Of a DNA stretch of 61,655 nucleotides, positions 34,850 to 46,495 are shown in pieces. The notes under the pieces were generated by a model. It did no database searches. It was not told where the DNA came from and worked only from the letters and a program-made list of their open reading frames with translations. The translations under genes were made by a program, and so were the position numbers. The DNA is from Gammaproteobacteria bacterium (GTDB lineage: Bacteria > Pseudomonadota > Gammaproteobacteria > Steroidobacterales > Rariloculaceae): contig DASTSM010000349.1 of assembly GCA_035760685.1 (NCBI GenBank), forward strand, positions 1-61,655, read 5' to 3'. How positions within the stretch are numbered: the stretch's first letter is position 1; each line of letters begins with the position of its first letter.

Positions 34850-36445
34850 ATGACGGCCGAACAACGCACCTCAGTCCTCGTCGTCGGCGGCGCCTTGACC
34901 GGCTTGTCGAGCGCGCTTTTCCTTGCGTGGCAAGGCATCGACTGCGTAGCCGTCGAGCGGCATCCCGATCTGCTGCTGCACCCGCGCCTGCGGGGCATCA
35001 ATCCGCGAACGCTCGAGCTCTATCGGCAGATCGGCCTCGAGCCGGCCATCCGCGAGGCCTGCTTCGCAGATCCGGATGCGTTCAAATGGAGCGCGGTGCG
35101 CGCGGAGACCTTGGCCGACGAGTCGTACGGCGCGGTCGAGGATGCCGAAGCGGGCGGCGGCCTCGCGGCTGCGAGCCCCGCGCCGTTCGCCCCGATCGAC
35201 CAGGACAAGCTCGAGATCCTGCTGCGCGCGAAGGCGCGAGCCCTGGGGGCCGACATTCGTTTCTCGACCGAGCTCGTCTCGTTCTCCGCGAGCGAGGCGG
35301 GCGTGCATGCCGTCCTGCGCGACCGGACAACGGACGAGACCTACGGTTTGACGGCCGACTACCTCATCGCCGCCGACGGCACGCACAGCTCCGTCCGCGA
35401 GCGCCTCGGCATCGGCGTCGACGGTCCCGGCATCCTGTACCACACGATCACGGCGATGGTCGACGCCGATCTCACGCCGGCTACGCGCGGACGCGCAGTC
35501 TCGATCGCGTACCTGCAAAAGCCGCGCCCGTTCACCGCGCTGCTCGCGCACGACCACGAGGCGAAGCGGTGGGTGATCGCCATGGGATTCGATCCGTCGC
35601 GCGAGTCGCTCGGCGACTACACCGACGAGCGTGTGGCGGACATCGTGCGCGCCGCGGCCGGGCTGCCCGAGGTGGACGTCAAGGTGCGGCCGCAGATTCC
35701 GGGCACCGACATCAAGGTGCTCGGATTTCCGATCGGCGCGCAGGTCGCGCAGCGTTTCGTCGACGACACGGGCCGAGTCTTCCTCGCGGGCGACGCGGCG
35801 CGAATCAACCCGCCGACGGGCGGCTTGGGCGGCAACGCCGCGGTGCAGGGCGCGCACAACCTCTGCTGGAAGCTTGCCGCCGTGCTCGAGGGCCATGCGG
35901 GACCGAAGCTGCTCGAGACCTACGAGCAAGAGCGGCGCCCGGTGGCCGAGCTCACGATGCAGCAGGCGTTCGCGCGGTTCGGCTCCCGCATGGGACCCGG
36001 CGCCGAGATCGAGCTGCTCGACTACGACGCGGTCGCCATGGGTTATCGGTACCGATCGTCCGCCGTGCTCGGCGCGCCGGACGACGCGAGGCCCGTCCCT
36101 CCGTCGGCGCTTTGCGCCGAGCCCGGCACGCGCGCGCCGCACGTCCCGATCGGGGAAGGCCGCTCGACGATCGACCTGTACGGCAAGGCCTTCGTGCTGC
36201 TGACGGGATCGAAGGGGAGCCGCGCGGCGACGGCGGCGAAGGCGGCCGCGGACGAGCTCCGCATGCCGCTCGAGACTCATGTCCTCGGCGGCGCGGACGC
36301 CGAAGCGCGGCACGGCATCGAAGCCTCGGGCGCCGTGCTCGTGCGGCCCGACGGCTTCGTGGCGTGGCGCATCGAGTCCAACGCGGGAGCCGCCGAGGCG
36401 GAGCTCGCGGATCGCTTGCGCCGCGTGCTCGGCCGTTCAGGTTGA
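34850..36445 (+). CDS. FAD-dependent aromatic-ring monooxygenase (PheA/TfdB-type hydroxylase)
   Basis: 531 aa. AGGAG-like site upstream. Dinucleotide fold VLVVGGALTGLSSALFL, DG motif IAADGTHSSVRE, GD motif VFLAGDAARINPPTGGLGGN. There is a C-terminal thioredoxin-like extension. Confidence 0.88.
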   Translation: MTAEQRTSVLVVGGALTGLSSALFLAWQGIDCVAVERHPDLLLHPRLRGINPRTLELYRQIGLEPAIREACFADPDAFKWSAVRAETLADESYGAVEDAEAGGGLAAASPAPFAPIDQDKLEILLRAKARALGADIRFSTELVSFSASEAGVHAVLRDRTTDETYGLTADYLIAADGTHSSVRERLGIGVDGPGILYHTITAMVDADLTPATRGRAVSIAYLQKPRPFTALLAHDHEAKRWVIAMGFDPSRESLGDYTDERVADIVRAAAGLPEVDVKVRPQIPGTDIKVLGFPIGAQVAQRFVDDTGRVFLAGDAARINPPTGGLGGNAAVQGAHNLCWKLAAVLEGHAGPKLLETYEQERRPVAELTMQQAFARFGSRMGPGAEIELLDYDAVAMGYRYRSSAVLGAPDDARPVPPSALCAEPGTRAPHVPIGEGRSTIDLYGKAFVLLTGSKGSRAATAAKAAADELRMPLETHVLGGADAEARHGIEASGAVLVRPDGFVAWRIESNAGAAEAELADRLRRVLGRSG

Positions 36446-38206
36446 GCGAACGAGCGCGCCGGCGTCTTGCAGTTCAGCTTCCGCGGCGGCCGCTCGGCGC
36501 GGCGCTAAGAAGCGGCGCTCGAGCTCCGCGGCGGTCAACGGCTCGGACAGCAAATAGCCCTGGACCTCATGGCAGCCGCGCGCGCGCAGCCACTCGAGCT
36601 GCCCGGGCCGCTCGACGCCTTCCGCCGTCACCGTGAGGCCGAGGCTCTGCGCGAGCGAAAGGATCGCATTCGCGACGGCGGCGTCGCTCGGTGAGCGGTC
36701 GACGTCGCGCACGAAAGCCTTGTCGATCTTGATGCGGTCGGGCGGAAAGCGCGTGAGGTAGGCGAGCGACGAGTAGCCGGTGCCGAAATCGTCGAGCGCG
36801 ATTCGGCAGCCGAGCTGCTGGAATCGCCGGAGCACGTTCTTGACCGCCGCCGAGTCCTTCACGAGCAGCGATTCCGTGATTTCGACTTCGATGAGGGCGG
36901 TCGGCACGCCGGCGTTCGCCGCCTCCGTCTCGATCACGCGCGCGGGGTCGCCGTGCAGCAGCTCCTTGGCGGAGCAGTTGACGGCGACCGGGATTTGCAG
37001 GCCGCGATCCAGCCACTTGCGCAGCTGCCGGCACACTGCGCGCACGACCCATTCGCTCATGTCGATGATCAGGCCGCTGTCCTCGGCGATCTCGACGAAA
37101 CGGGAAGGCGAGATGTCGCCATGCTCCTCGTCGCACCAGCGCAGCAGCGCCTCGACGCCGACGAGGCGGTTTTCGCGGAGGTCGAACTTCGGTTGGAACA
37201 TCAGCGTCAGGAGATCGTCGTGCACGGCGCGGCGCAGCCGCGCCTCGAGCTCGAGCCAATCCTGGAGGCGGCTGCTCATGACCGGCGCATAGACGGCGAT
37301 GGGTCCCAAGGCGCCCGACTTCGCCTGATACATCGCGGTATCCGCGTGCTTGAGCACCGACGCGACGTCGGCGCCGTCGTCCGGGAAGAAGGCGATCCCG
37401 ATGCTCGGCGCCGAGTAGAACTCGAGCGAGTCGTAAACGATGGGCGCCTCGAATTCGTCGCTGCACGCTTCGGCGATCTGCATCGCGATCTCGCGAGCGT
37501 TCGCGTGCTGGAGCACGATGATGAACTCGTCGCCGCCGAAGCGGGCGAGCACGAGCCGCGAATATTCCGCGGAGAAGCTCGCGAGCGTCGCGGAAAGCCG
37601 GCCCGCGACGGTGCGCAGGACCTCGTCGCCGACGGAATGGCCGAACGTGTCGTTCACGCGCTTGAAGCTGTTCAAGTCGAGGTAAATGACCGCGGCGGAC
37701 TCGTTCTTCCGTGCGGCGCTCTCGAACATCCCCTCCATGAGATCGATGCACCGCTGCCGGTTCGGCAGGCCCGTCAAAGTGTCGTAATACGCAAGCCGCT
37801 CGATGTGCTCGGCCGAAGCGGCGTTGCGCAAGATGTACTCCAAGCGGTGCGGCAGCAGCGCCCAGTTCACCGGCTTCGAGACGAAGTCCGTCGCGCCGGC
37901 CTCGAATGCGCGGCGGATCGCCTCCGAATCCTGATGCCCCGTGACCATGACGATCGGCACGCTGCCGAAGCGCGAGTCGGCGCGCAGGCGCCGGCAGACG
38001 TCGTGACCGTTCAGTCCGGGCATGTCGACGTCGAGCAGCACGATCGCGGCGTCGCTCTCGAGCGCGGCCGCGAGCGCATCGGCGCCGTTGTCGAAGGCGA
38101 GACTCTCGAGGCCGACTGCGGCGACGGCTTCGCCGAGCAGCATGCGGCCGAGATCCTCGTCGTCGGCGATGATCGCGAGCCGGCGTTGCTGATTTTCGCG
38201 GTTCAT
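36437..38206 (-). CDS. Response regulator with GGDEF and EAL domains (REC-GGDEF-EAL)
   Basis: 589 aa from the internal ATG at 38206, which forms an ATGA overlap with the kinase gene stop. REC ([20 protein letters not shown]). Intact GGDEF ([11 protein letters not shown]). Intact EAL ([22 protein letters not shown]). Confidence 0.9.
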
Positions 38207-41200
38207 GCGATCGCCTGCAGAGTCCGGCTTTGCAGCGTCTCGAGCAGCGGCACGTGCGCCGCACGCAGCACTCGGCACAGCTCCGGCGCGCGTGTGCGCC
38301 CGTCCGCGAGACACTGCCTCTCGAGCTCTTTGACTTGGTCGGCGTACGCGAGCGCACCCACGTTCGCCGCGGCCGAAGCGAGCTTGTGGCACACGGCGGC
38401 GGCCGCGGCGAGATCGCCTCGCCCGAGGGCGGCTTCGAGGTCGGCGAGCGATTGCGTGGAGCTCGAGCGGAACAGCTCGACGAGCTTCGCGTAGAGCGCG
38501 GCGTGCCTGCCCGGGTGCAGTTGGCGCAGCGCCGCGACGGCGTCGGCATCGACGCACGCGAGCCGCCGGGCATCGGCGGCGTCCTCGGCCGCGGCGCCGC
38601 TCGCGGGCGCGAGCCAGCGCCGCAAGAGACGCGTGCAGTCATCGAGCGTGTACGGCTTGCTCAAGATGCCGTCGATGTCGGCCGCGAGGCACTTCTCTCG
38701 GTAGTGCTCGGCATCGTGCGCCGTCAGCGCGACGATCGGTGTGCGCGCTTCGCCGTTCTCGCCGGCGCGCTCCTGATGTTGGCGTATGAGCGCGGTCGTC
38801 GCGAATCCGTCCATTCCAGGCATGCTGAGATCCATCAATATGAGATCGAAGCGTTCGGCCGCGCTGCGCGCGACGGCCTCCGCGCCGCTTTCGACCCAGA
38901 CGCACGTGCATCCGAGCGCATCGAGATAGCCTTGCGCGACCGCGGCATTGACGGGCTCGTCCTCGACGAGGAGCACATGCCCCGCGAGAGGCGCATCGTC
39001 GACGGCCCGATCATCGGCAGCGGGGCTCGCGCGCACGCCGATCGCAGCGGCCAGCGCGTCCCGCAACGCGGCCCGATGAACCGGCTTCAAAACGATTCGG
39101 CCGTCGGGCAACGCGGTGCGCAGCCGCCGTTCCTCCACATCGCCGGCGGTCGCGATTACGATGACGGGGGCGCGCGCGCCGCCGGGCGAGGCGAGCAGCG
39201 AGTCGACCGTGTCCGGATAGCTGTCGGCGTCGAGCACCACGACGTCGGCTCGCTGGGCCTCGGACTCGTGCGCGAGGATCTCGAGACCGAGCGACGATGC
39301 GTGCCGCGCGAGCGACTCCGCGAGCGACGGACGGCGCGACTGTATGTGGACGCGGCGGCCGGCGAGATCCGCGGGCCGGCTCGGCTCGAGCGCGTCCCCG
39401 ACCTCGAGCGGGAGCGAGACGCGGAAAGTGGAGCCGATCTGCGGCCGGCTCTCGACCGTGATGCCGCCGCCCATGAGATCGGCGAGCTCGCGGCAGATCG
39501 CGAGGCCGAGCCCCGTGCCTCCGAAGCGGCGCGTCGTGGCCTCGTCGGCCTGCGCGAAAGGCTCGAAGATCTTGGCCGTCGTCGCCGCGTCCATGCCGAT
39601 GCCGGTGTCGGCGACGGTCAGCCGCGCGGCGGCCCGGCCGCCGCCGTCCGTATCGATGTCCGCCTTGACGACGACTTCGCCTTGCTCCGTGAATTTGACT
39701 GCATTGCCGACCAGGTTCATCAAGATCTGGCGAATGCGAAGCGGGTCGCCGAGCAGGGCGCGCTCGGCCGGCGCCGGCGGGCACACGACGAGCTCGATGC
39801 CCTTCGCCTCGGCCGCACCCGCGAACAAGCTCGTGCATTCTTCGAGGATCCGGCCAAGATCGATCGGCAGCCGCTCGAGCGTCACCTTTCCCGCTCGCAC
39901 GCGCGACAGGTCGAGCAGGTCGTTGACGATTTGCAGCAGGATCTGCGCCGATGAGCGGATCGTTTTCGTGAGGTGCGTCTGCGTCGGCGAAAGCGCGGTG
40001 CGCGACAAGAGCTCGGTCATGCCGACCACGCCGTTCATCGGTGTGCGCAGCTCGTGACTCATGCGGTCGAGGAAGTCGCTCTTCGCCTGCGCCGCCTCGG
40101 CGAGCTGCCGGTTGCTCTCGACGAGCTCGCGCGTGCGCAGCTGCACCTCGGACTCGAGACGCTCGCGCGCTCGGGCCATCTCCTGGAATTTCTTCCGGTG
40201 CCGGCGAATTTGCTGCGCAATCAGGCCGAGCAGCGCGAGCGCATAGATCGCGTACGCCGCGGGCGACGCCCAGGGCGCGGGATCCCGGTGAATCGTCAAC
40301 CGCAAGGGCGTCGTGCTCCAGGCGGAGTCGGAGTTCGCGGCGCGCACCTCGAGCACGTGATCGCCGGGATCGAGATTCGTGAGCGTGATGCGGCGGTCGG
40401 CGCCGAGATCGATCCAATCGTCGGTCAGGCCGGCCATGCGATAGGCGAGTCGGTTGTACGCCGGCGACGTGAAATCGAGCACGCCGAAGTCGAGCGACAC
40501 GATGCTGCCGCGATAGTCGAGCTCGATGCGATCGCGCAGCCAGAAGGGCGTCTTGCCTTCCGCGCGCACGCCGAGCACCTCGACGTTCGTGAGCGCGACG
40601 CGCGGCGGCTCGCCGTTCTCCGACAGCGCCGCCGGGTCGAAGATGTTGAAGCCGCCCGGTCCCCCGAAGCACACGCGTCCGTCGCGCAGCCGAAAGTACG
40701 CGCCGAACGAGAACTCCTCGCCCTGCAAGCCGTCGGCGCGATGGTAGGTCTTGACGGCGCCCGTCGCGGGATCGAGCCGCATGAGGCCCGCGTTGCCGCT
40801 GAGCCAGATTCGGCCGAGATCATCCGGCACTACGCCGTACAGCGTGTCGCTCGAGAGACCGTCGGCGCGCGTGACGGCCTCGAACTCGATCGCATCGGGC
40901 GCCGCGGACGGATCGACGACGCGGGCGAGGCCGCCCCCGTCCGTGGCGATCCAAACGTTGCCGTCGCCGTCGACGGCGAGCGCATACACCGTGTTGGACG
41001 GGAGCGAAGACGGGTCGGCCGGATCGTTGCGGAAGACTTTCAGCACCGTGCCGTCCGCGCGCGCGAGATCGAGCCCCTCGCCCTCGGTGCCGAGCCAGAG
41101 ATTGCCGCGCGAGTCCTCCGCGATCGCGGTCACGTTCGGGGCGCTGACCGCACCCGGGGCAGAGCCGAAGGGAAGCTGGCGCACGGTGCGCGTCGCCGGG

Positions 41201-42729
41201 TCGAGCACGTTCGCGCCGCCGCCGAGCGTGCCGATCCAGATCGAGCCGCTGCGCGTCACGAGCATCGACAAGATGCCGGGTGCGCTCAGCGACTGCGGAT
41301 CGCCGGGCTGCACCGGAATCGACTCGACGCGGCCTTCCGGCGTGAGGACCTTGACGCCGCCGCCCATCGTGCCGATCCACAGCGCGCCGCGACGATCGAG
41401 CTGCAGCGACGTGAGCGGATCGTCGCCGACGGCATTCTTGCGCCCGACGAGCGTATCGACGGATGTCGCGACGCCGGTCGCGGCGTCGAAGCGAACGAGC
41501 CCGCTGAGCCATGCGATCCACAGGTCGCCGCCGGGCGCGTCCGCGAAGGCCGTGATGGGCTGGTTGTCGAGCCAGCTGGGACGATGCCCGCCGAGCTCCC
41601 AGCTGTGCGGGTTCCAGCGGCTCACGCCGCCCGTGCGGGTGCCGATCCAGACGAGGCCGGTCGGGTCCTGATAAAGCGACATCACGAACGAATCGCGGAG
41701 CGACGCGTTGTCGTTCGCGTCGCGGCGATAATTCGTGAACGTTCCCTTGGAACGATCGAGCAGCGAGAGGGCGTCGCCCGTGCCGACCCATAGCCGGCCC
41801 GCCCGGTCCTCGAGCAGCGCGCGCACGTCGTCGCTCGCGAGCGACGACGCATTGCCGGCGTCGTGTCGGAACGTTTCGAGCACCCGGCCGTCCCGGTCGG
41901 TGTGGATCAGGCCCGCATCGAACGTCGCGATCCAGAGCGTGCCGCTCCGATCCTCGATCACGCGCGCCACCTTCTTGTCTCGCAGCGAATGCGGATCGCC
42001 GGCGGGCGGGCCGACGCGAGTCAGCGTGCGCGTGTCGGACTGCCATCGGTCGAGCCCGCTGTCCGTGCCGATCAAGACGTTGCCGGCGCGATCGAGCGCG
42101 AGGGCGGAAACGCGGTCGTTGCCGAGCGAAGCGGGATCGCCCGGGTCGTGACGGATGTGCTCGATGCGCCCCGTCGACGGATCGAGCACGTCGACGCCCG
42201 CGTCGAACGTTCCGATCCAGACGAAGCCGCGCCGGTCGATGAGCACGGTGCGGACCCTGTCGCTCGCAAGCGAGCCTGAGTCGTTCGCGTCGTGTCGATA
42301 GCTCGTGAAGGCGTCGGTCCGGCGATCCCATTTCGCGAGCCCGGCGTCGTTGATCGCGATCCAGAGGTTGCTTTGCCGATCCTCGGCGATCTCCCAGATG
42401 TAGTTGCCGGGCAGAGAGCCGCTGTCCGTTCGAGAGCGCGCGTAGCGGTAGAGCTCGTGTCCGTCGTAGCGCACGAGCCCATCCTCGGTGCCGAGCCAGA
42501 CGAAGCCTTGCGAGTCCTGCAGCGTCGCCATGACCGTCGCCTGCGGGAGACCGTCCTCGGTCGTCAGGTGCTCGAGCACGAGCGGCGGCGCGTCGGCCGC
42601 GGCGGCCGACGCGCCGAGCATCGAGAGGCAGGCGTTGACGAGATGCGAGCGCCATCGGACGCTCGATCGTTGGGTCGATTTCACGCGCGGAGTCTCGGCG
42701 AGCTTGGGCGGCGCGGCGTTGATGCGCAT
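38203..42729 (-). CDS. Hybrid sensor histidine kinase with a periplasmic two-component-regulator propeller / Y_Y_Y domain, REC and HPt
   Basis: 1508 aa from the internal ATG at 42729. WIGT/WIAT/LWLGT propeller motifs recur about every 45 aa. TM segment [17 protein letters not shown]. HisKA ([11 protein letters not shown]). HATPase_c ([26 protein letters not shown]). A receiver-like spacer precedes the REC ([27 protein letters not shown]). HPt ([14 protein letters not shown]). Confidence 0.9.
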
Positions 42730-42788
42730 CCCGAATCCGGCAAGCGCCGGGAGGCCGCGCCGCCGAAGCGTCGGCGGCGCGGCGGACG

Positions 42789-44708
42789 TCACTCGTTGGG
42801 CACCCAGCTCGCGATCGAGGCGGGCTTCGTGCTGGAGGTTCGCGGCGGCGACGTGTACCACCAGGGCTCGCTTCGGCTCCACGTGTAGCCGCGGCTCCAC
42901 GTATAGCCGCGCGACCACGTATAGCCCCGGCTCCAGGTGTAGCCGCGGCTCCACGTGTAGCCTCGGCTCCAGGTGTAGCCCTGGCTCCAGGAGTAGCCTT
43001 CGCCCCGCGGATAGCCGCGCGACCACGTGTAGCCGTCGGCATCGGCGGACCCGCCCCAACGCCAGCCGTCCATGTCCATGATGTAGTAGTCGCCGTTCGC
43101 GTCCTGGTTCGCGGGGCCGCCGAAGTGCGCGATGCCGGCGATGTCCTCGTCGATGTCGAGCCCGCGGTTCGCGCACCCGGACGCGCCGCTGTTCGCCGCA
43201 TCGAGCGCGTTCAGGAGACCGGCTCCCTGCTGGAACACGCTGTACGCGAGCGTGCCGTCCGCCTTCACGGCGGGCCGCCCGGACGCGAGCAGCCGGCACT
43301 TCACCTCGTCCGGCGTCAGCCACGGGGCTTGTTGCAGCAGCAGCGCGACGACGCCCGAGGTCACGGCCGCCGCCTGCGAAGTGCCCGACATCACGAAGAG
43401 CTGCTCCGCGATGTTCATCGAGCCCGGATCGATGTTGGCGAGATAGCTGCTGCTCGACATCGAAGCCGCGATGTGGCCGCCCGGCGCGACGATCTCGGGC
43501 TTCACGAAGCCTTCGAAAGTCGGACCGGCCGAGGAGAACGACGCGAGACGGTCGTCGCCGCCGTCATAGGGCGTGTAGTCGTCCGTCAGCGCGCCGACCG
43601 TGATGACGTACGGCACGTTGCCCGGCACGTCGATGGTCATCGGGCTCGGACCGTCGTTGCCCGCGGCGACCACGACGACGATACCCGCGCGCCATGCGGC
43701 CATGACGGCCTGGTTCAGCGGATCGTCCCAGTAGAACGATTGCGGCTCCGCGCCGAACGAAAGGTTCAGCACGCGGATCCGGTACTGCGCGCGGTGCGCG
43801 ACGATCCAGTCGAGACCCGCGATGACGTCGACGTAGCGTCCCGCGCCCTCGCCGTTGAACGCGCGCACGATGACGAGATTCGCGCCGGGAGCGATGCCCT
43901 GATAGTCGCCCGAAAGCGCCTGCGCGCCGCTCGCCGCGATGGACGTCACGTGCGTGCCGTGACCGTACGGATCGCTCCTGACGGGGCCCGAGCCGCCGTT
44001 CGTCACGTCGACGGAGGCGAGGATGCGATTGCCGTAGAACTGAGTCGTGTCCTGCCAGAGCCCCGTGTCGAGCACGGCGATCGTGACGCCGCGGCCCGTG
44101 ATCCCGGCGCGCTGGAGCGAGTCGGCGCCGATGAGCCCCGGATAGTTCGTCTCGTAGAGCAGCGGCAGGCCGAGCAGGACGCCGGTGCCGTCCTCGAGCG
44201 TCGGAATGGAGCTCAGCGTGTCGACGAGCGGCGACGTGAGCGTGCTGACGAGAGGATCGGTCGTGACCGTCGAAACGACCGGAGTCGCGATCGACTGCAC
44301 GTCCTCGACGAGAGGACTCGTCGCGAGCGTCGAGTTCAGCGAGTTCACGAGGTTCTGCAGACTGCCGAGCAGCGAGCCGCGTGTTTTGACCGCGCGATCC
44401 TCGTAGACCCGAAGGCTCGAATCCGAGCGCAGACGGGCAAGCTGCGGCGGCGTGAGCCGAGCGGAGACGGCGTGAATGATGCGGAGCTCCGCCTCGGGCT
44501 CGGCGCCGACGGCGCGGACGCGGGTGCGCGCCGCGTCGAGCGTCGCGCCCTGCACGATATACGATGCCGTCTCTTGCGGCTGCGCCGCCGCCGCAAACGC
44601 GCCGGCCGTCGCGGTCAGGAGCCCGATCAGCAACCGAGCCGCGAGCCCGATTCGGCAGCGAGGCCCGAGGGCAAGCGGCAAACGCGGCGCACGTATGAAG
44701 TTTTTCAT
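42789..44708 (-). CDS. Secreted S8 subtilisin-like serine protease with a C-terminal (GYTWSR)n hexapeptide repeat tail
   Basis: 639 aa from the internal ATG at 44708. It has a signal peptide and an I9-like propeptide (ASYIVQG...LRVYEDRAV). The catalytic triad sits in subtilase contexts: [35 protein letters not shown]. The tail is Trp/Tyr-rich. Confidence 0.88.
42873..43034 (-). repeat. Nine tandem 18-bp units encoding GY(T/S/P)(W/R)(S/G)(R/Q/E)
   Basis: Read on the minus strand the units are [18 protein letters not shown], then 6x GYTWSR. The units differ mainly at synonymous sites: TAC/TAT, ACG/ACC, AGC/TCG, CGC/CGA/CGG. Confidence 0.9.
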
Positions 44709-44851: not shown

Positions 44852-46495
44852 TTACGCGGAGTGCCGGGCGGGCGCCGGCGCGGCCGCGTTCACGGCGACG
44901 TCGCCGTAGAGATCGCCGTTGCCCTGGGGGCACCCGAGCGCGAGCAGGGCGTCGCGCTGAGCCTCGTCATCGACGCCCGTGGCGATCGGCGTGAGCGAGA
45001 GCGCCGCCGCCATCGCGATCCCGGCGCGGCACACGTTGCGCGCGACCTCGTCGCCGCGCAGCGCGCCGACCCACGCGCGATCGAGCTGCAGGCCCCAAAC
45101 GGGACCGCGAGCGAGCGACGCGAGAGAGCCGACGTCGCGGCCGACTTCGTCCACGACGAAGCGCACGCCGAGCTGATGCAATGAGCGGAAGTCGGCCGGA
45201 TGGCGCGCGACGAAGACCTTCTCCGCGATGCGCAGCTCGAGCCGCTCGGGCGGCACGGCGCCGGACTCGAGGAACGCATGCATGTCGGAGACGAAGTCCT
45301 CGTGCAGCACGTGATCGCGCAGCGCGCCGAGCGAGATGCGCACGTCCGATTCCGAGCCCGCGCCGAGCGCGGCGAAGTCCTCCGGAAGTTGCGCGAGCAG
45401 GCTGCGCGAGAGGCTCGTCGCGAGGCCGGTCGTCTGCGCCACTCGCAGAAATTCCGCGGGACGGATCTCGCCGCGCAACGGATGAATCCAGCGGACGTAA
45501 CCGACCCACGCGACTCGGCGTCCGGTCCGAAGGTCGTGCCGGCCCGCATAGCGCAGGCGAATCGCGCCGCTCGCGATCGCTTCGCGCAGCTCCCTCGCGA
45601 TGTCGATGCGCGCGAGCGATTTCAGCTGCATCGTGTCGCTGAAGAAGAAGACGTCGCTCGACGCCGCACGGCGCGCCTCGGCCGCGGCGGCGCGCGCATG
45701 GTCGAGCAGGGTGCGCGGGCTCGTCGCGTCGACGCCTAGGATTCCGGCGCCGGCGTAGGGCGTGAGGTGGAACTCCGCGTCTCCGATGACGACGGCCTCG
45801 CGGAGGCTCGCGCAGACGCTCCCGACGCACGCTTCGATGACGTCGCGGTCCCCGCTTTCGACGACGAGGGCGAGCAGGTTCTCGCTGAGCTGACCCAGGC
45901 ACCAGCCGGACGCGCCGTCGTCGTTCGCGTTCGCGTTCGCGTTCGCGGGCGCGGGCGCCGGCAGCCGACCGAGCGCGGTCGTCATGATTTGCTCCGATAT
46001 TCGCGTCGAGATGATCTGCGCGATGTCGGCGATTTCCTCTATATAGATGACGGCGACCGCGATCGGCCGCTCGCGCAGCGCGGCAATCGACACCGCTTCC
46101 TTGAAGCGGCGCAGAAAGCCGCGGCGATCGAGCTGCATCCGGCGGTGCTCGCCGGTCGCATCGCCGACGTCGCCGTGCGCGCCGGTCAACGCCGGACGGA
46201 TCGCGAGGATCGCGCGCGACGGACCTTGAGGATTCGCGCGGACGTCGTATTGCTTGCCGCTCTCCCGGAAGCGAGCCTCGACCGGAGCGCGGTCGGCGAT
46301 CGTCTTGCGCGCGAGCTGCCGGATGAGGGCGGCCGTCGACTCGGACCACGCGGGGGCGAAGCGCCCGCGGCGCGACGGATCGCGGCCGGCCAGCTCGGGC
46401 ACGGCTCGGCCGCCCGCGTGCGCGATGAGCGTCCCGTCGCGCTTCACGAGCAGCACGAGATCGGGCAGCGCGTCGATGAGCTCCGGCGTCGACAT
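44852..46495 (-). CDS. Degenerate GGDEF-EAL protein with an N-terminal PAS-like region (FimX-like candidate c-di-GMP receptor)
   Basis: 547 aa from the internal ATG at 46495. The domain order resembles PAS-GGDEF-EAL. The GG(D/E)EF position reads QLSENLL. The EAL position reads [17 protein letters not shown] is replaced by VDEVGRDVGS. There are no TM segments. Confidence 0.7.
   Translation of the reverse strand: MSTPELIDALPDLVLLVKRDGTLIAHAGGRAVPELAGRDPSRRGRFAPAWSESTAALIRQLARKTIADRAPVEARFRESGKQYDVRANPQGPSRAILAIRPALTGAHGDVGDATGEHRRMQLDRRGFLRRFKEAVSIAALRERPIAVAVIYIEEIADIAQIISTRISEQIMTTALGRLPAPAPANANANANDDGASGWCLGQLSENLLALVVESGDRDVIEACVGSVCASLREAVVIGDAEFHLTPYAGAGILGVDATSPRTLLDHARAAAAEARRAASSDVFFFSDTMQLKSLARIDIARELREAIASGAIRLRYAGRHDLRTGRRVAWVGYVRWIHPLRGEIRPAEFLRVAQTTGLATSLSRSLLAQLPEDFAALGAGSESDVRISLGALRDHVLHEDFVSDMHAFLESGAVPPERLELRIAEKVFVARHPADFRSLHQLGVRFVVDEVGRDVGSLASLARGPVWGLQLDRAWVGALRGDEVARNVCRAGIAMAAALSLTPIATGVDDEAQRDALLALGCPQGNGDLYGDVAVNAAAPAPARHSA

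Follow-up and report, generated by a model that had tools for sequence, protein, structure and literature searches.

Results

A hexapeptide array at the C terminus of a subtilase

The window analysed here is a whole stretch of 61,655 nucleotides (nt), contig DASTSM010000349.1, from a gammaproteobacterium of the Rariloculaceae, order Steroidobacterales (GenBank assembly GCA_035760685.1). On its minus strand an open reading frame (ORF) at 42789-44708 (P0001) encodes a secreted subtilase of peptidase family S8, 639 amino acids (aa) in length, and the subject of this report is the C-terminal extension of that protease, referred to below as the Trp-hexad tail. The tail contains an array of nine hexapeptides (42873-43034, minus strand, residues 559-612), seven of which read exactly GYTWSR in the minus-strand translation, six of these being contiguous. 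Both units that depart from this form are among the first three; the six contiguous GYTWSR units come next, after which an end piece leads to the stop codon at 42789-42791. Pairs of the seven exact units differ at 1-6 of their 18 nt (mean 3.0), and every difference is synonymous (Tyr TAC or TAT, Thr ACG or ACC, Ser AGC or TCG, Arg CGC, CGA or CGG), which indicates that the expansion was not very recent. A first-pass annotation, made by a model from the letters of the window, had already described this array, and on re-reading the minus strand its coordinates, unit counts and codon pattern all proved correct.

Tandem Repeats Finder reports the array with a period of 18 nt and 9.2 copies at 42874-43040. 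Its occurrence is far above chance expectation. A degenerate DNA pattern of the array was found in four of 201 Gammaproteobacteria genomes (one genome per family) and a reversed control pattern in none of the same 201; within the 4.5 Mb host genome the hexad-array pattern occurs at this locus only. The window copy is more homogenised than those of close relatives, having six identical units, all ending in R, where the relatives alternate K and R.

The host protease

The protein is ordered as a signal peptide, an I9-like propeptide, a linker, a catalytic domain and the Trp-hexad tail. Its N terminus looks like a Sec signal peptide, and AlphaFold2 gives a confident beta-alpha-beta propeptide-like unit at residues 48-103. 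The catalytic domain (43194-44126, minus strand, approximately residues 195-505) was delimited by phmmer, which aligns residues 195-505 to residues 128-416 of 3afg_A (E 9e-53), and by AlphaFold2, in whose model the predicted local distance difference test score (pLDDT) of this domain is mostly 85-98. The only Pfam match in the protein is Peptidase_S8 (PF00082; residues 205-477, E 2e-47, 162 bits against a cut-off of 21.8), and in NCBIfam the catalytic domain matches subtilase families only below threshold. Membership of S8 is further indicated by the Asp-His-Ser triad with its oxyanion Asn and by superposition of the model on Tk-SP and subtilisins; the best relative in both structure and sequence is ProN-Tk-SP of Thermococcus kodakarensis (3AFG; Foldseek E 4.5e-27). 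Since D214, H250, N351 and S444 are invariant in 89 homologues, the protease should be active.

Two cysteines, C471 and C512 (window approximately 43173-43298), are likewise invariant in the 89 homologues. C471 belongs to the final helix of the catalytic domain, and C512 opens the lead-in to the tail, within the motif CAN. A C471-C512 disulfide can be predicted from this conservation; it would suit an exported protein and may pin the tail to the enzyme. A Ser/Thr/Leu-rich linker (residues ~110-170, window 44200-44380) joins the propeptide to the catalytic domain; a loose SPLV(D/E)/DPLVST motif recurs in it three to four times, and AlphaFold2 models it as helical with moderate confidence.

Architecture and conservation of the tail

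The array is preceded by a lead-in (43035-43193, minus strand, residues 506-558) of the form C-A-N-x-G-L-D...D-L-A-G-x-x-H-F-G-G-P-A-N...G-x-Y-Y-I-M, in which C512, A513, N514, G516, D522, H528, G530, G531, A533 and N534 are invariant. It is followed by a C-terminal end piece (42792-42872, minus strand, residues 613-639) made up of SEPWW, an 18-residue Ser/Thr/Pro-rich spacer and the terminal ...WVPNE; here W616, S631, I632, W635, V636, P637 and N638 are kept in at least 90% of the 89 homologues. The same lead-in precedes the arrays of distant phyla (CANxGLD...DLAG..HYGG.A...G.YY), and the end pieces there are related, as S(I/V)NxWVxQE.

A search with the whole protein returned 4658 proteins at E <= 0.001. 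The best 120 of these are 52-78% identical to the window protein and come from Steroidobacteraceae and Woeseiaceae, including the cultured Peristeroidobacter soli and P. agariperforans; among these best 120, nearly all of the full-length relatives have the tail intact. In approximately 85 orthologues the tail measures ~105 aa after GGPAN, with fixed length, and the distances between successive Trp residues are 11, then 6 repeated nine to ten times, then 1 (in PWW) and then 18 (to the Trp of WVPNE). The tails of orthologues, which are 52-80% identical, finish with S-V-P-W-W, 18 residues and PASIxxWVPN(E/Q) at the C terminus. Individual units are themselves orthologous across species: unit 2 reads GYPWG(Q/E) or GYAWNQ, while the last residue of unit 3 is E or D. 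The hexad profile of the orthologues is G 73%, Y 75%, T 49%, W 100% and S 55%, with a variable, hydrophilic residue at position 6.

The ratio of non-synonymous to synonymous substitution rates (dN/dS; Nei-Gojobori, ten orthologues) is 0.03-0.21 in the array, where dS is 0.6-1.4, and 0.08-0.26 in the catalytic domain; it is higher, at 0.23-1.1, in the flanking pre-repeat and end segments of the same ten orthologues. By this comparison, purifying selection constrains the array no less strongly than the catalytic domain. The first-pass annotation had argued that the array is maintained by selection on the peptide and is not a product of recent slippage, and the fixed length and Trp spacing, the unit-specific conservation and the low dN/dS all bear this out; unit number, which it had thought worth comparing between strains, is constant in the ~85 orthologues, as is the register.

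In seven orthologues (P0022, P0035, P0045, P0064, P0095, P0117 and P0120) the public gene calls shift frame in, or just before, the array. These shifts probably stem from mistakes of assembly or sequencing in the repeat, in which case intact tails would be under-represented in databases.

Distribution among proteins and phyla

A profile of the tail gave 120 matches among 1.84 billion representative proteins. Fragments aside, the matches are proteins of 560-1700 aa with C-terminal arrays such as (GYLWSD)n, (GFVWSD)n, (GYLWNN)n and (GYAWSG)n, often finishing in ...LTE(T/P)MS(I/V)NxWVxQE. All ten long matches that were scanned have a Peptidase_S8 domain directly upstream of the array. Long matches of another kind (P0128, P0163, P0170, P0204 and similar) were set aside as carrying other Gly/Tyr/Thr repeats without Trp hexads.

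A scan of 185,579 species genomes with the DNA pattern for (W-x-x-[GA]-[YF]-x)3-W gave at least 120 loci. The loci listed contain 128 in-frame ORFs, of which 83 encode an S8 domain of the same clade, the rest being short out-of-frame or truncated ORFs, and no long intact ORF with the G-[YF]-x-W signature but without S8 was present. Members are found in Chloroflexota, Acidobacteriota (Thermoanaerobaculia and Holophagae), Acidimicrobiia and several gammaproteobacterial orders. The search by pattern for taxa and fusion partners, another check named in the first-pass annotation, thus reaches several phyla, and among the matches examined the S8 domain always stands just before the array. The broad hexad profile is G77, Y71/F21, L34/V18, W100, S38/T22 and D45/G21/N16, with 4-15 units per protein, and a super-period of 12 residues is frequent in homologues. 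The module is old and widespread and, on the evidence of these searches, exclusive to one S8 clade, and the last of these features argues against a portable anchor.

The layout common to the 83 genome ORFs and the ~120 representative proteins can be put as a family definition, in which a Tk-SP-like S8 domain and a CAN...GG.A...YY lead-in are directly followed by a run of four or more G-[YF]-x-W-[STANG]-x units, and the window protein has all of these elements. The definition that we propose also includes an adjacent membrane sensor, a kinase or cyclase with Reg_prop and Y_Y_Y domains, and the window locus has one, described below. Seven Chloroflexota loci (L087, L096, L100, L134, L157, L168 and L200) have two hexad arrays with a conserved STDWQPL...WQSGY spacer between them.

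Relation of the tail to known modules

Pfam has no match on tail residues 506-639 at E <= 1, and neither Pfam nor NCBIfam gives a meaningful tail match for the window protein or for ten distant members. A profile search of the PDB with 44 tails gave chance matches only, to rhodopsins (E ~0.6). The sorting signals PEP-CTERM, LPXTG, GlyGly-CTERM and the C-terminal domain of the type IX secretion system (Por) were considered and rejected, the protein having no hydrophobic C-terminal stretch and its tail matching no Pfam or NCBIfam model. Choline-binding repeats (CW_binding_1, PF01473, ~20 aa per repeat) were rejected on the lack of a Pfam match at E <= 1 and on the period of six. The left-handed beta-helix of hexapeptide repeats ([LIV]-G-x4, PF00132) was rejected as well: it has no Pfam match here, the profile is G-Y-x-W-S-x, and the super-period is 12 residues and not 18; a 54 nt period was also scored by Tandem Repeats Finder in the window array. 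Homology with a PPC-type C-propeptide such as that of Tk-SP was discarded, residues 506-639 having no Pfam match and the Thermococcus C-propeptide having neither Trp hexads nor similarity.

The view that the tail corresponds to no named module, taken in the first-pass annotation without database searches, is upheld by these comparisons with Pfam, NCBIfam and PDB sequences and by the absence of a hydrophobic C-terminal helix and of LPXTG. Prediction of the tail structure, which the same annotation had put forward, was carried out with AlphaFold2 and gave no confident fold, either in the full-length protein with an alignment of 89 sequences (tail pLDDT 24-33) or for residues 506-639 alone with 44 sequences (mean pLDDT 36, no usable model). 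The literature searched held nothing on the repeat sequences or on pairs of propeller sensors and subtilisins.

Together with the conservation of the tail, these results make the GYTWSR array the central part of a C-terminal domain not described before, borne by one clade of predicted Sec-exported, Tk-SP-like S8 subtilases. This Trp-hexad tail begins with the CAN...GGPAN...YY lead-in, continues with G-[YF]-x-W-[STA]-x units, 9-10 in number, and closes with PWW...PASIxxWVPN(E/Q).

Genomic pairing with sensor genes

The protease gene stands in a block of four co-directional genes. Upstream of it is a gene for an EAL-domain protein (44852-46495, minus strand; EAL is its only Pfam domain), which is kept in most of 80 related loci. 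Downstream lies a hybrid histidine kinase (38203-42729, minus strand) with Reg_prop propellers, Y_Y_Y, HisKA, HATPase, REC and Hpt domains in Pfam, and the last gene of the block encodes a REC-GGDEF-EAL response regulator (36437-38206, minus strand), assigned from Pfam and synteny. The kinase starts 59 nt past the protease stop codon, and this gap contains no terminator-like site. The four-gene block is kept in ~75 of the 80 related Steroidobacterales loci, and in the host genome the neighbouring kinase is the sole Reg_prop protein, just as the protease has the sole hexad array. In the program-made ORF list the kinase frame runs upstream through the 3' end of the protease gene (38203-43323, 1706 aa), with the repeat in the other frame; the extension (minus strand, 42789-43323) is an artefact of the high G+C repeat and not an extension of the kinase gene.

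The pairing recurs outside this block. At 20 of ~60 non-orthologous Trp-hexad S8 loci, seen as arbitrary 8-kb blocks of DNA only, an adjacent Reg_prop gene lies on the same strand; these 20 belong to Thermoanaerobaculia, other Acidobacteriota, Holophagae, Acidimicrobiia and several gammaproteobacterial groups, and include Steroidobacterales paralogues. Seven of the non-orthologous partners were scanned, of which six are Reg_prop-Y_Y_Y-GGDEF proteins and one has a histidine-kinase ATPase domain. By comparison, none of ~48 loci for Tk-SP-like S8 proteins without hexads has a Reg_prop neighbour within 2.5 kb. Among the three other array-bearing gammaproteobacterial families, the sole Reg_prop ORF of the genome is directly downstream of the array in two. 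Four large genomes contain seven arrays, of which six have a Reg_prop match within ~3 kb downstream, and the partner of the seventh is the orthologous kinase of the Steroidobacterales block. One seemingly unpaired sensor is followed by a gene for an S8 protein whose tail is of a variant form, (GYGWTDGGGVHA)n. The Woeseiaceae paralogue L259 (G203:C1:805700-808034) shows that neither gene order nor repeat form is constant: the tail gene stands after, not before, its Reg_prop-GGDEF partner, and the tail is a degenerate one of 12-residue units, GYGWTDGGGVHA(K/E).

At two loci of other lineages a further gene lies between the protease and the sensor, encoding a PAS-GGDEF-EAL or a GGDEF-PilZ protein (L261, 4781-6943; L101, 1938-3170), which reinforces the theme of cyclic dimeric GMP (c-di-GMP) in the neighbourhood. 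The Chloroflexota members adjoin HisKA/HATPase kinases of ~510 aa with multiple transmembrane segments and without Reg_prop, the N-terminal halves of which are uncharacterised. Overall, genes for tail-bearing proteases almost always have a membrane sensor gene as neighbour, and across Pseudomonadota, Acidobacteriota and Acidimicrobiia the two form a conserved pair feeding c-di-GMP signalling, in which the sensor combines a large extracytoplasmic Reg_prop double propeller and a Y_Y_Y domain with a histidine-kinase or GGDEF output.

Discussion

We hypothesize that the Trp-hexad tail serves as an interaction domain peculiar to these proteases, through which the enzyme is coupled to the ectodomain of the neighbouring sensor, or to its immediate membrane surroundings, a reading which we favour while giving it somewhat less than an even chance. 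An interaction role is favoured because the tail distinguishes the sensor-linked clade from its Tk-SP-like relatives, because it is conserved as strongly as the active site and because every partner presents either a large extracytoplasmic domain or a membrane surface. The functions first suggested for the repeat, namely cell-surface retention, polysaccharide binding and amyloid formation, fit poorly with the data, given that the tail is found only on one S8 clade and travels with a sensor gene; this restriction and this linkage point to a role specific to the protease within a signalling pair rather than to a portable anchor.

In the mechanism that we envisage, the tail would provide an aromatic interaction surface, most likely built of short beta-hairpin units of two hexads each that become ordered only on binding. 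It would hold the exported protease on, or present it to, the extracytoplasmic part of the neighbouring sensor, and envelope proteolysis would then be coupled to c-di-GMP signalling, either through a kinase, here feeding the REC-GGDEF-EAL protein, or through a GGDEF cyclase. As a conjecture, G-[YF]-x-W-[ST]-[DNGK] would fit strands of three to four residues with tight turns between them and with Tyr and Trp sharing one face, and the 12-residue super-period would fit units of two-strand hairpins. Disordered epitopes containing Trp are known to bind beta-propellers, the TolB box of colicin E9 being an example. In a narrower form of the proposal, which we hold to be doubtful, the tail would be the physical link in a signalling pair not recognised before, engaging the double-propeller ectodomain of the adjacent kinase or diguanylate cyclase either as a tether or as a self-cleaved peptide ligand, through which surface proteolysis or substrate load would be relayed to c-di-GMP.

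Several observations weigh against such an interaction role. The low pLDDT of the tail leaves the hairpin structure a conjecture, and a strict six-residue period is unusual for a disordered docking motif. The Chloroflexota double arrays lie beside kinases without Reg_prop, and the genome of the third array-bearing gammaproteobacterial family (G165) has no Reg_prop at all, so that the tail cannot be solely a Reg_prop ligand, although in G165 the array-bearing gene is cut by the contig end and we regard this genome as uninformative. It is also the case that the synteny could reflect a link between the sensor and the activity of the protease that does not involve the tail.

The tail could instead be a C-propeptide that aids export or folding, or imposes latency, and is cut off after secretion, probably by the protease itself. 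The nearest solved relative, Tk-SP, sheds a C-propeptide in the same position and of similar length, a Tyr or Trp every two to four residues would make the tail an excellent substrate for a hydrophobic S1 pocket of the Tk-SP kind, and AlphaFold2 finds no stable fold in it. However, the Tk-SP C-propeptide, as read from a 96%-identical Thermococcus locus (L204), is jelly-roll or PPC-like, has no Trp hexads and is not homologous; moreover, every hexad is under purifying selection as strong as the active domain is, and the extreme C terminus is conserved, which is more than is seen in most disposable propeptides, and the synteny with the sensor is left unexplained. We consider a propeptide rather unlikely. 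A general envelope anchor that works independently of the sensor, through a stripe of Tyr and Trp lying in the membrane interface or binding a cell-wall or exopolysaccharide polymer, has in its favour a Wimley-White interfacial free energy of -11.5 kcal/mol for the 54-residue array (~-1.7 per GYTWSR, and -2.0 per GYLWSD), and partners that are membrane proteins in all lineages, for which closeness to the membrane would be an advantage; aromatic residues at regular intervals are, in addition, typical of carbohydrate- and choline-binding repeats. Yet portable anchors are normally common to many enzyme classes and this tail is seen only after S8 domains, the fixed unit number and conserved terminal motif of the orthologues would be needless for simple partitioning, and the tail resembles no known binding repeat in Pfam, NCBIfam or PDB sequences, so that an anchor of this sort seems unlikely.

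That the tail is a precursor of small aromatic peptides, with the active protease cutting its own array and the propeller sensor detecting pieces of hexapeptide size, would account for tandem, near-identical units and for the pairing of protease genes with Reg_prop sensors. Hybrid two-component sensors of Bacteroides bind small products of neighbouring enzymes, and Bacteroides thetaiotaomicron was the only control genome to match Reg_prop. Position 6, however, is not a conserved cleavage residue, since orthologues have K, Q, R, E, S, N or T there and other members D, G or N; Kex2-like cleavage after a basic residue was rejected on the same ground, the position not being conserved as K/R. Units also differ within most homologues, leaving no single conserved peptide product, and the lead-in and end piece, both conserved, would be superfluous, all of which makes a peptide precursor improbable. 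Finally, neutral low-complexity sequence arising by replication slippage might be suspected from a period-18 tandem array whose window copy is more homogenised than its K/R-alternating relatives, and from the several database entries that are frame-shifted inside the array, a stretch evidently error-prone in assembly. Against this, unit number and register do not vary among the ~85 orthologues, dN/dS in the array stays at 0.03-0.21 at substantial dS (0.6-1.4), and the array is conserved across phyla. Judged by these sequence comparisons, neutral slippage is excluded in practice, its probability being negligible.

A great many proteases have the tail, and the soil and sediment bacteria that encode them represent at least four phyla; it is conserved as strongly as the active site and covered by no family model. 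Its strict pairing with Reg_prop/Y_Y_Y sensors of c-di-GMP output offers a testable handle on what propeller sensors detect outside the polysaccharide systems of Bacteroides. Were the tail to bind the sensor, an extracellular protease would be connected to a second-messenger pathway in a new way, perhaps through a fold of a new Trp-ladder type; were it a physical link to the double propeller, either its fold or its mode of binding would be new, and so would the input logic of Reg_prop sensors outside Bacteroidota. Even if it were only a propeptide or an anchor, it would still be a new family of accessory domain that merits a Pfam entry. The finding is in any event of more interest than a low-complexity tail, and the function of the tail is one that we infer.

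C-terminal accessory domains are already known on secreted subtilases, among them PPC, jelly-roll and P-domains and the assembly domains of Vpr (PMC10657474). The Trp-hexad tail is unrelated to these by sequence and has an unusually specific genomic partner. Tk-SP, the nearest solved catalytic domain, shares with the window protein the order of signal peptide, I9-like propeptide, catalytic domain and C-terminal extension of ~100 aa or more; its precursor (residues 1-640) loses a C-propeptide of ~100 aa, the mature enzyme comprising residues 114-539, and its S1 pocket is large and hydrophobic (PMC12474785). It differs in having a beta-jelly-roll followed by a PPC-like C-propeptide, with no Trp periodicity, whereas the window protein has the Trp-hexad tail instead of both, and Tk-SP-like loci are without a Reg_prop neighbour. 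Vpr of Bacillus is an S8 peptidase that forms extracellular fibrils by means of assembly domains placed after the catalytic domain (PMC10657474; PDB 8JMW). The likeness lies in an S8 protease with C-terminal accessory domains for protein-protein assembly, and in a structural match of the catalytic domains; the assembly domains of Vpr, however, are folded and have no sequence similarity to the Trp-hexad tail.

Among repeats, choline-binding repeats (CW_binding_1) and GW modules are also short, tandem and rich in Gly, Tyr and Trp, and also stand at the C termini of secreted enzymes, and their stack of beta-hairpins is a plausible structural analogy. They have periods of 20 or ~80 residues and occur on many enzyme types, whereas the Trp-hexad tail has a period of 6 (super-period 12) and is restricted to S8. 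With the left-handed beta-helix (Hexapep) the tail shares a six-residue period, but it has bulky Trp and Tyr in place of a small aliphatic core, a super-period of 12 and not 18, and ~9-10 units. The closest parallel to the gene pair itself is offered by the Reg_prop/Y_Y_Y hybrid sensors of Bacteroides, which are encoded beside the enzymes that make their ligands. The neighbouring gene in the window has the same architecture, and in both cases a secreted hydrolase gene lies beside the sensor gene; here, however, the partner is a protease with a dedicated tail and not a glycoside hydrolase, and the outputs are c-di-GMP enzymes where those of Bacteroides act through AraC-type DNA binding.

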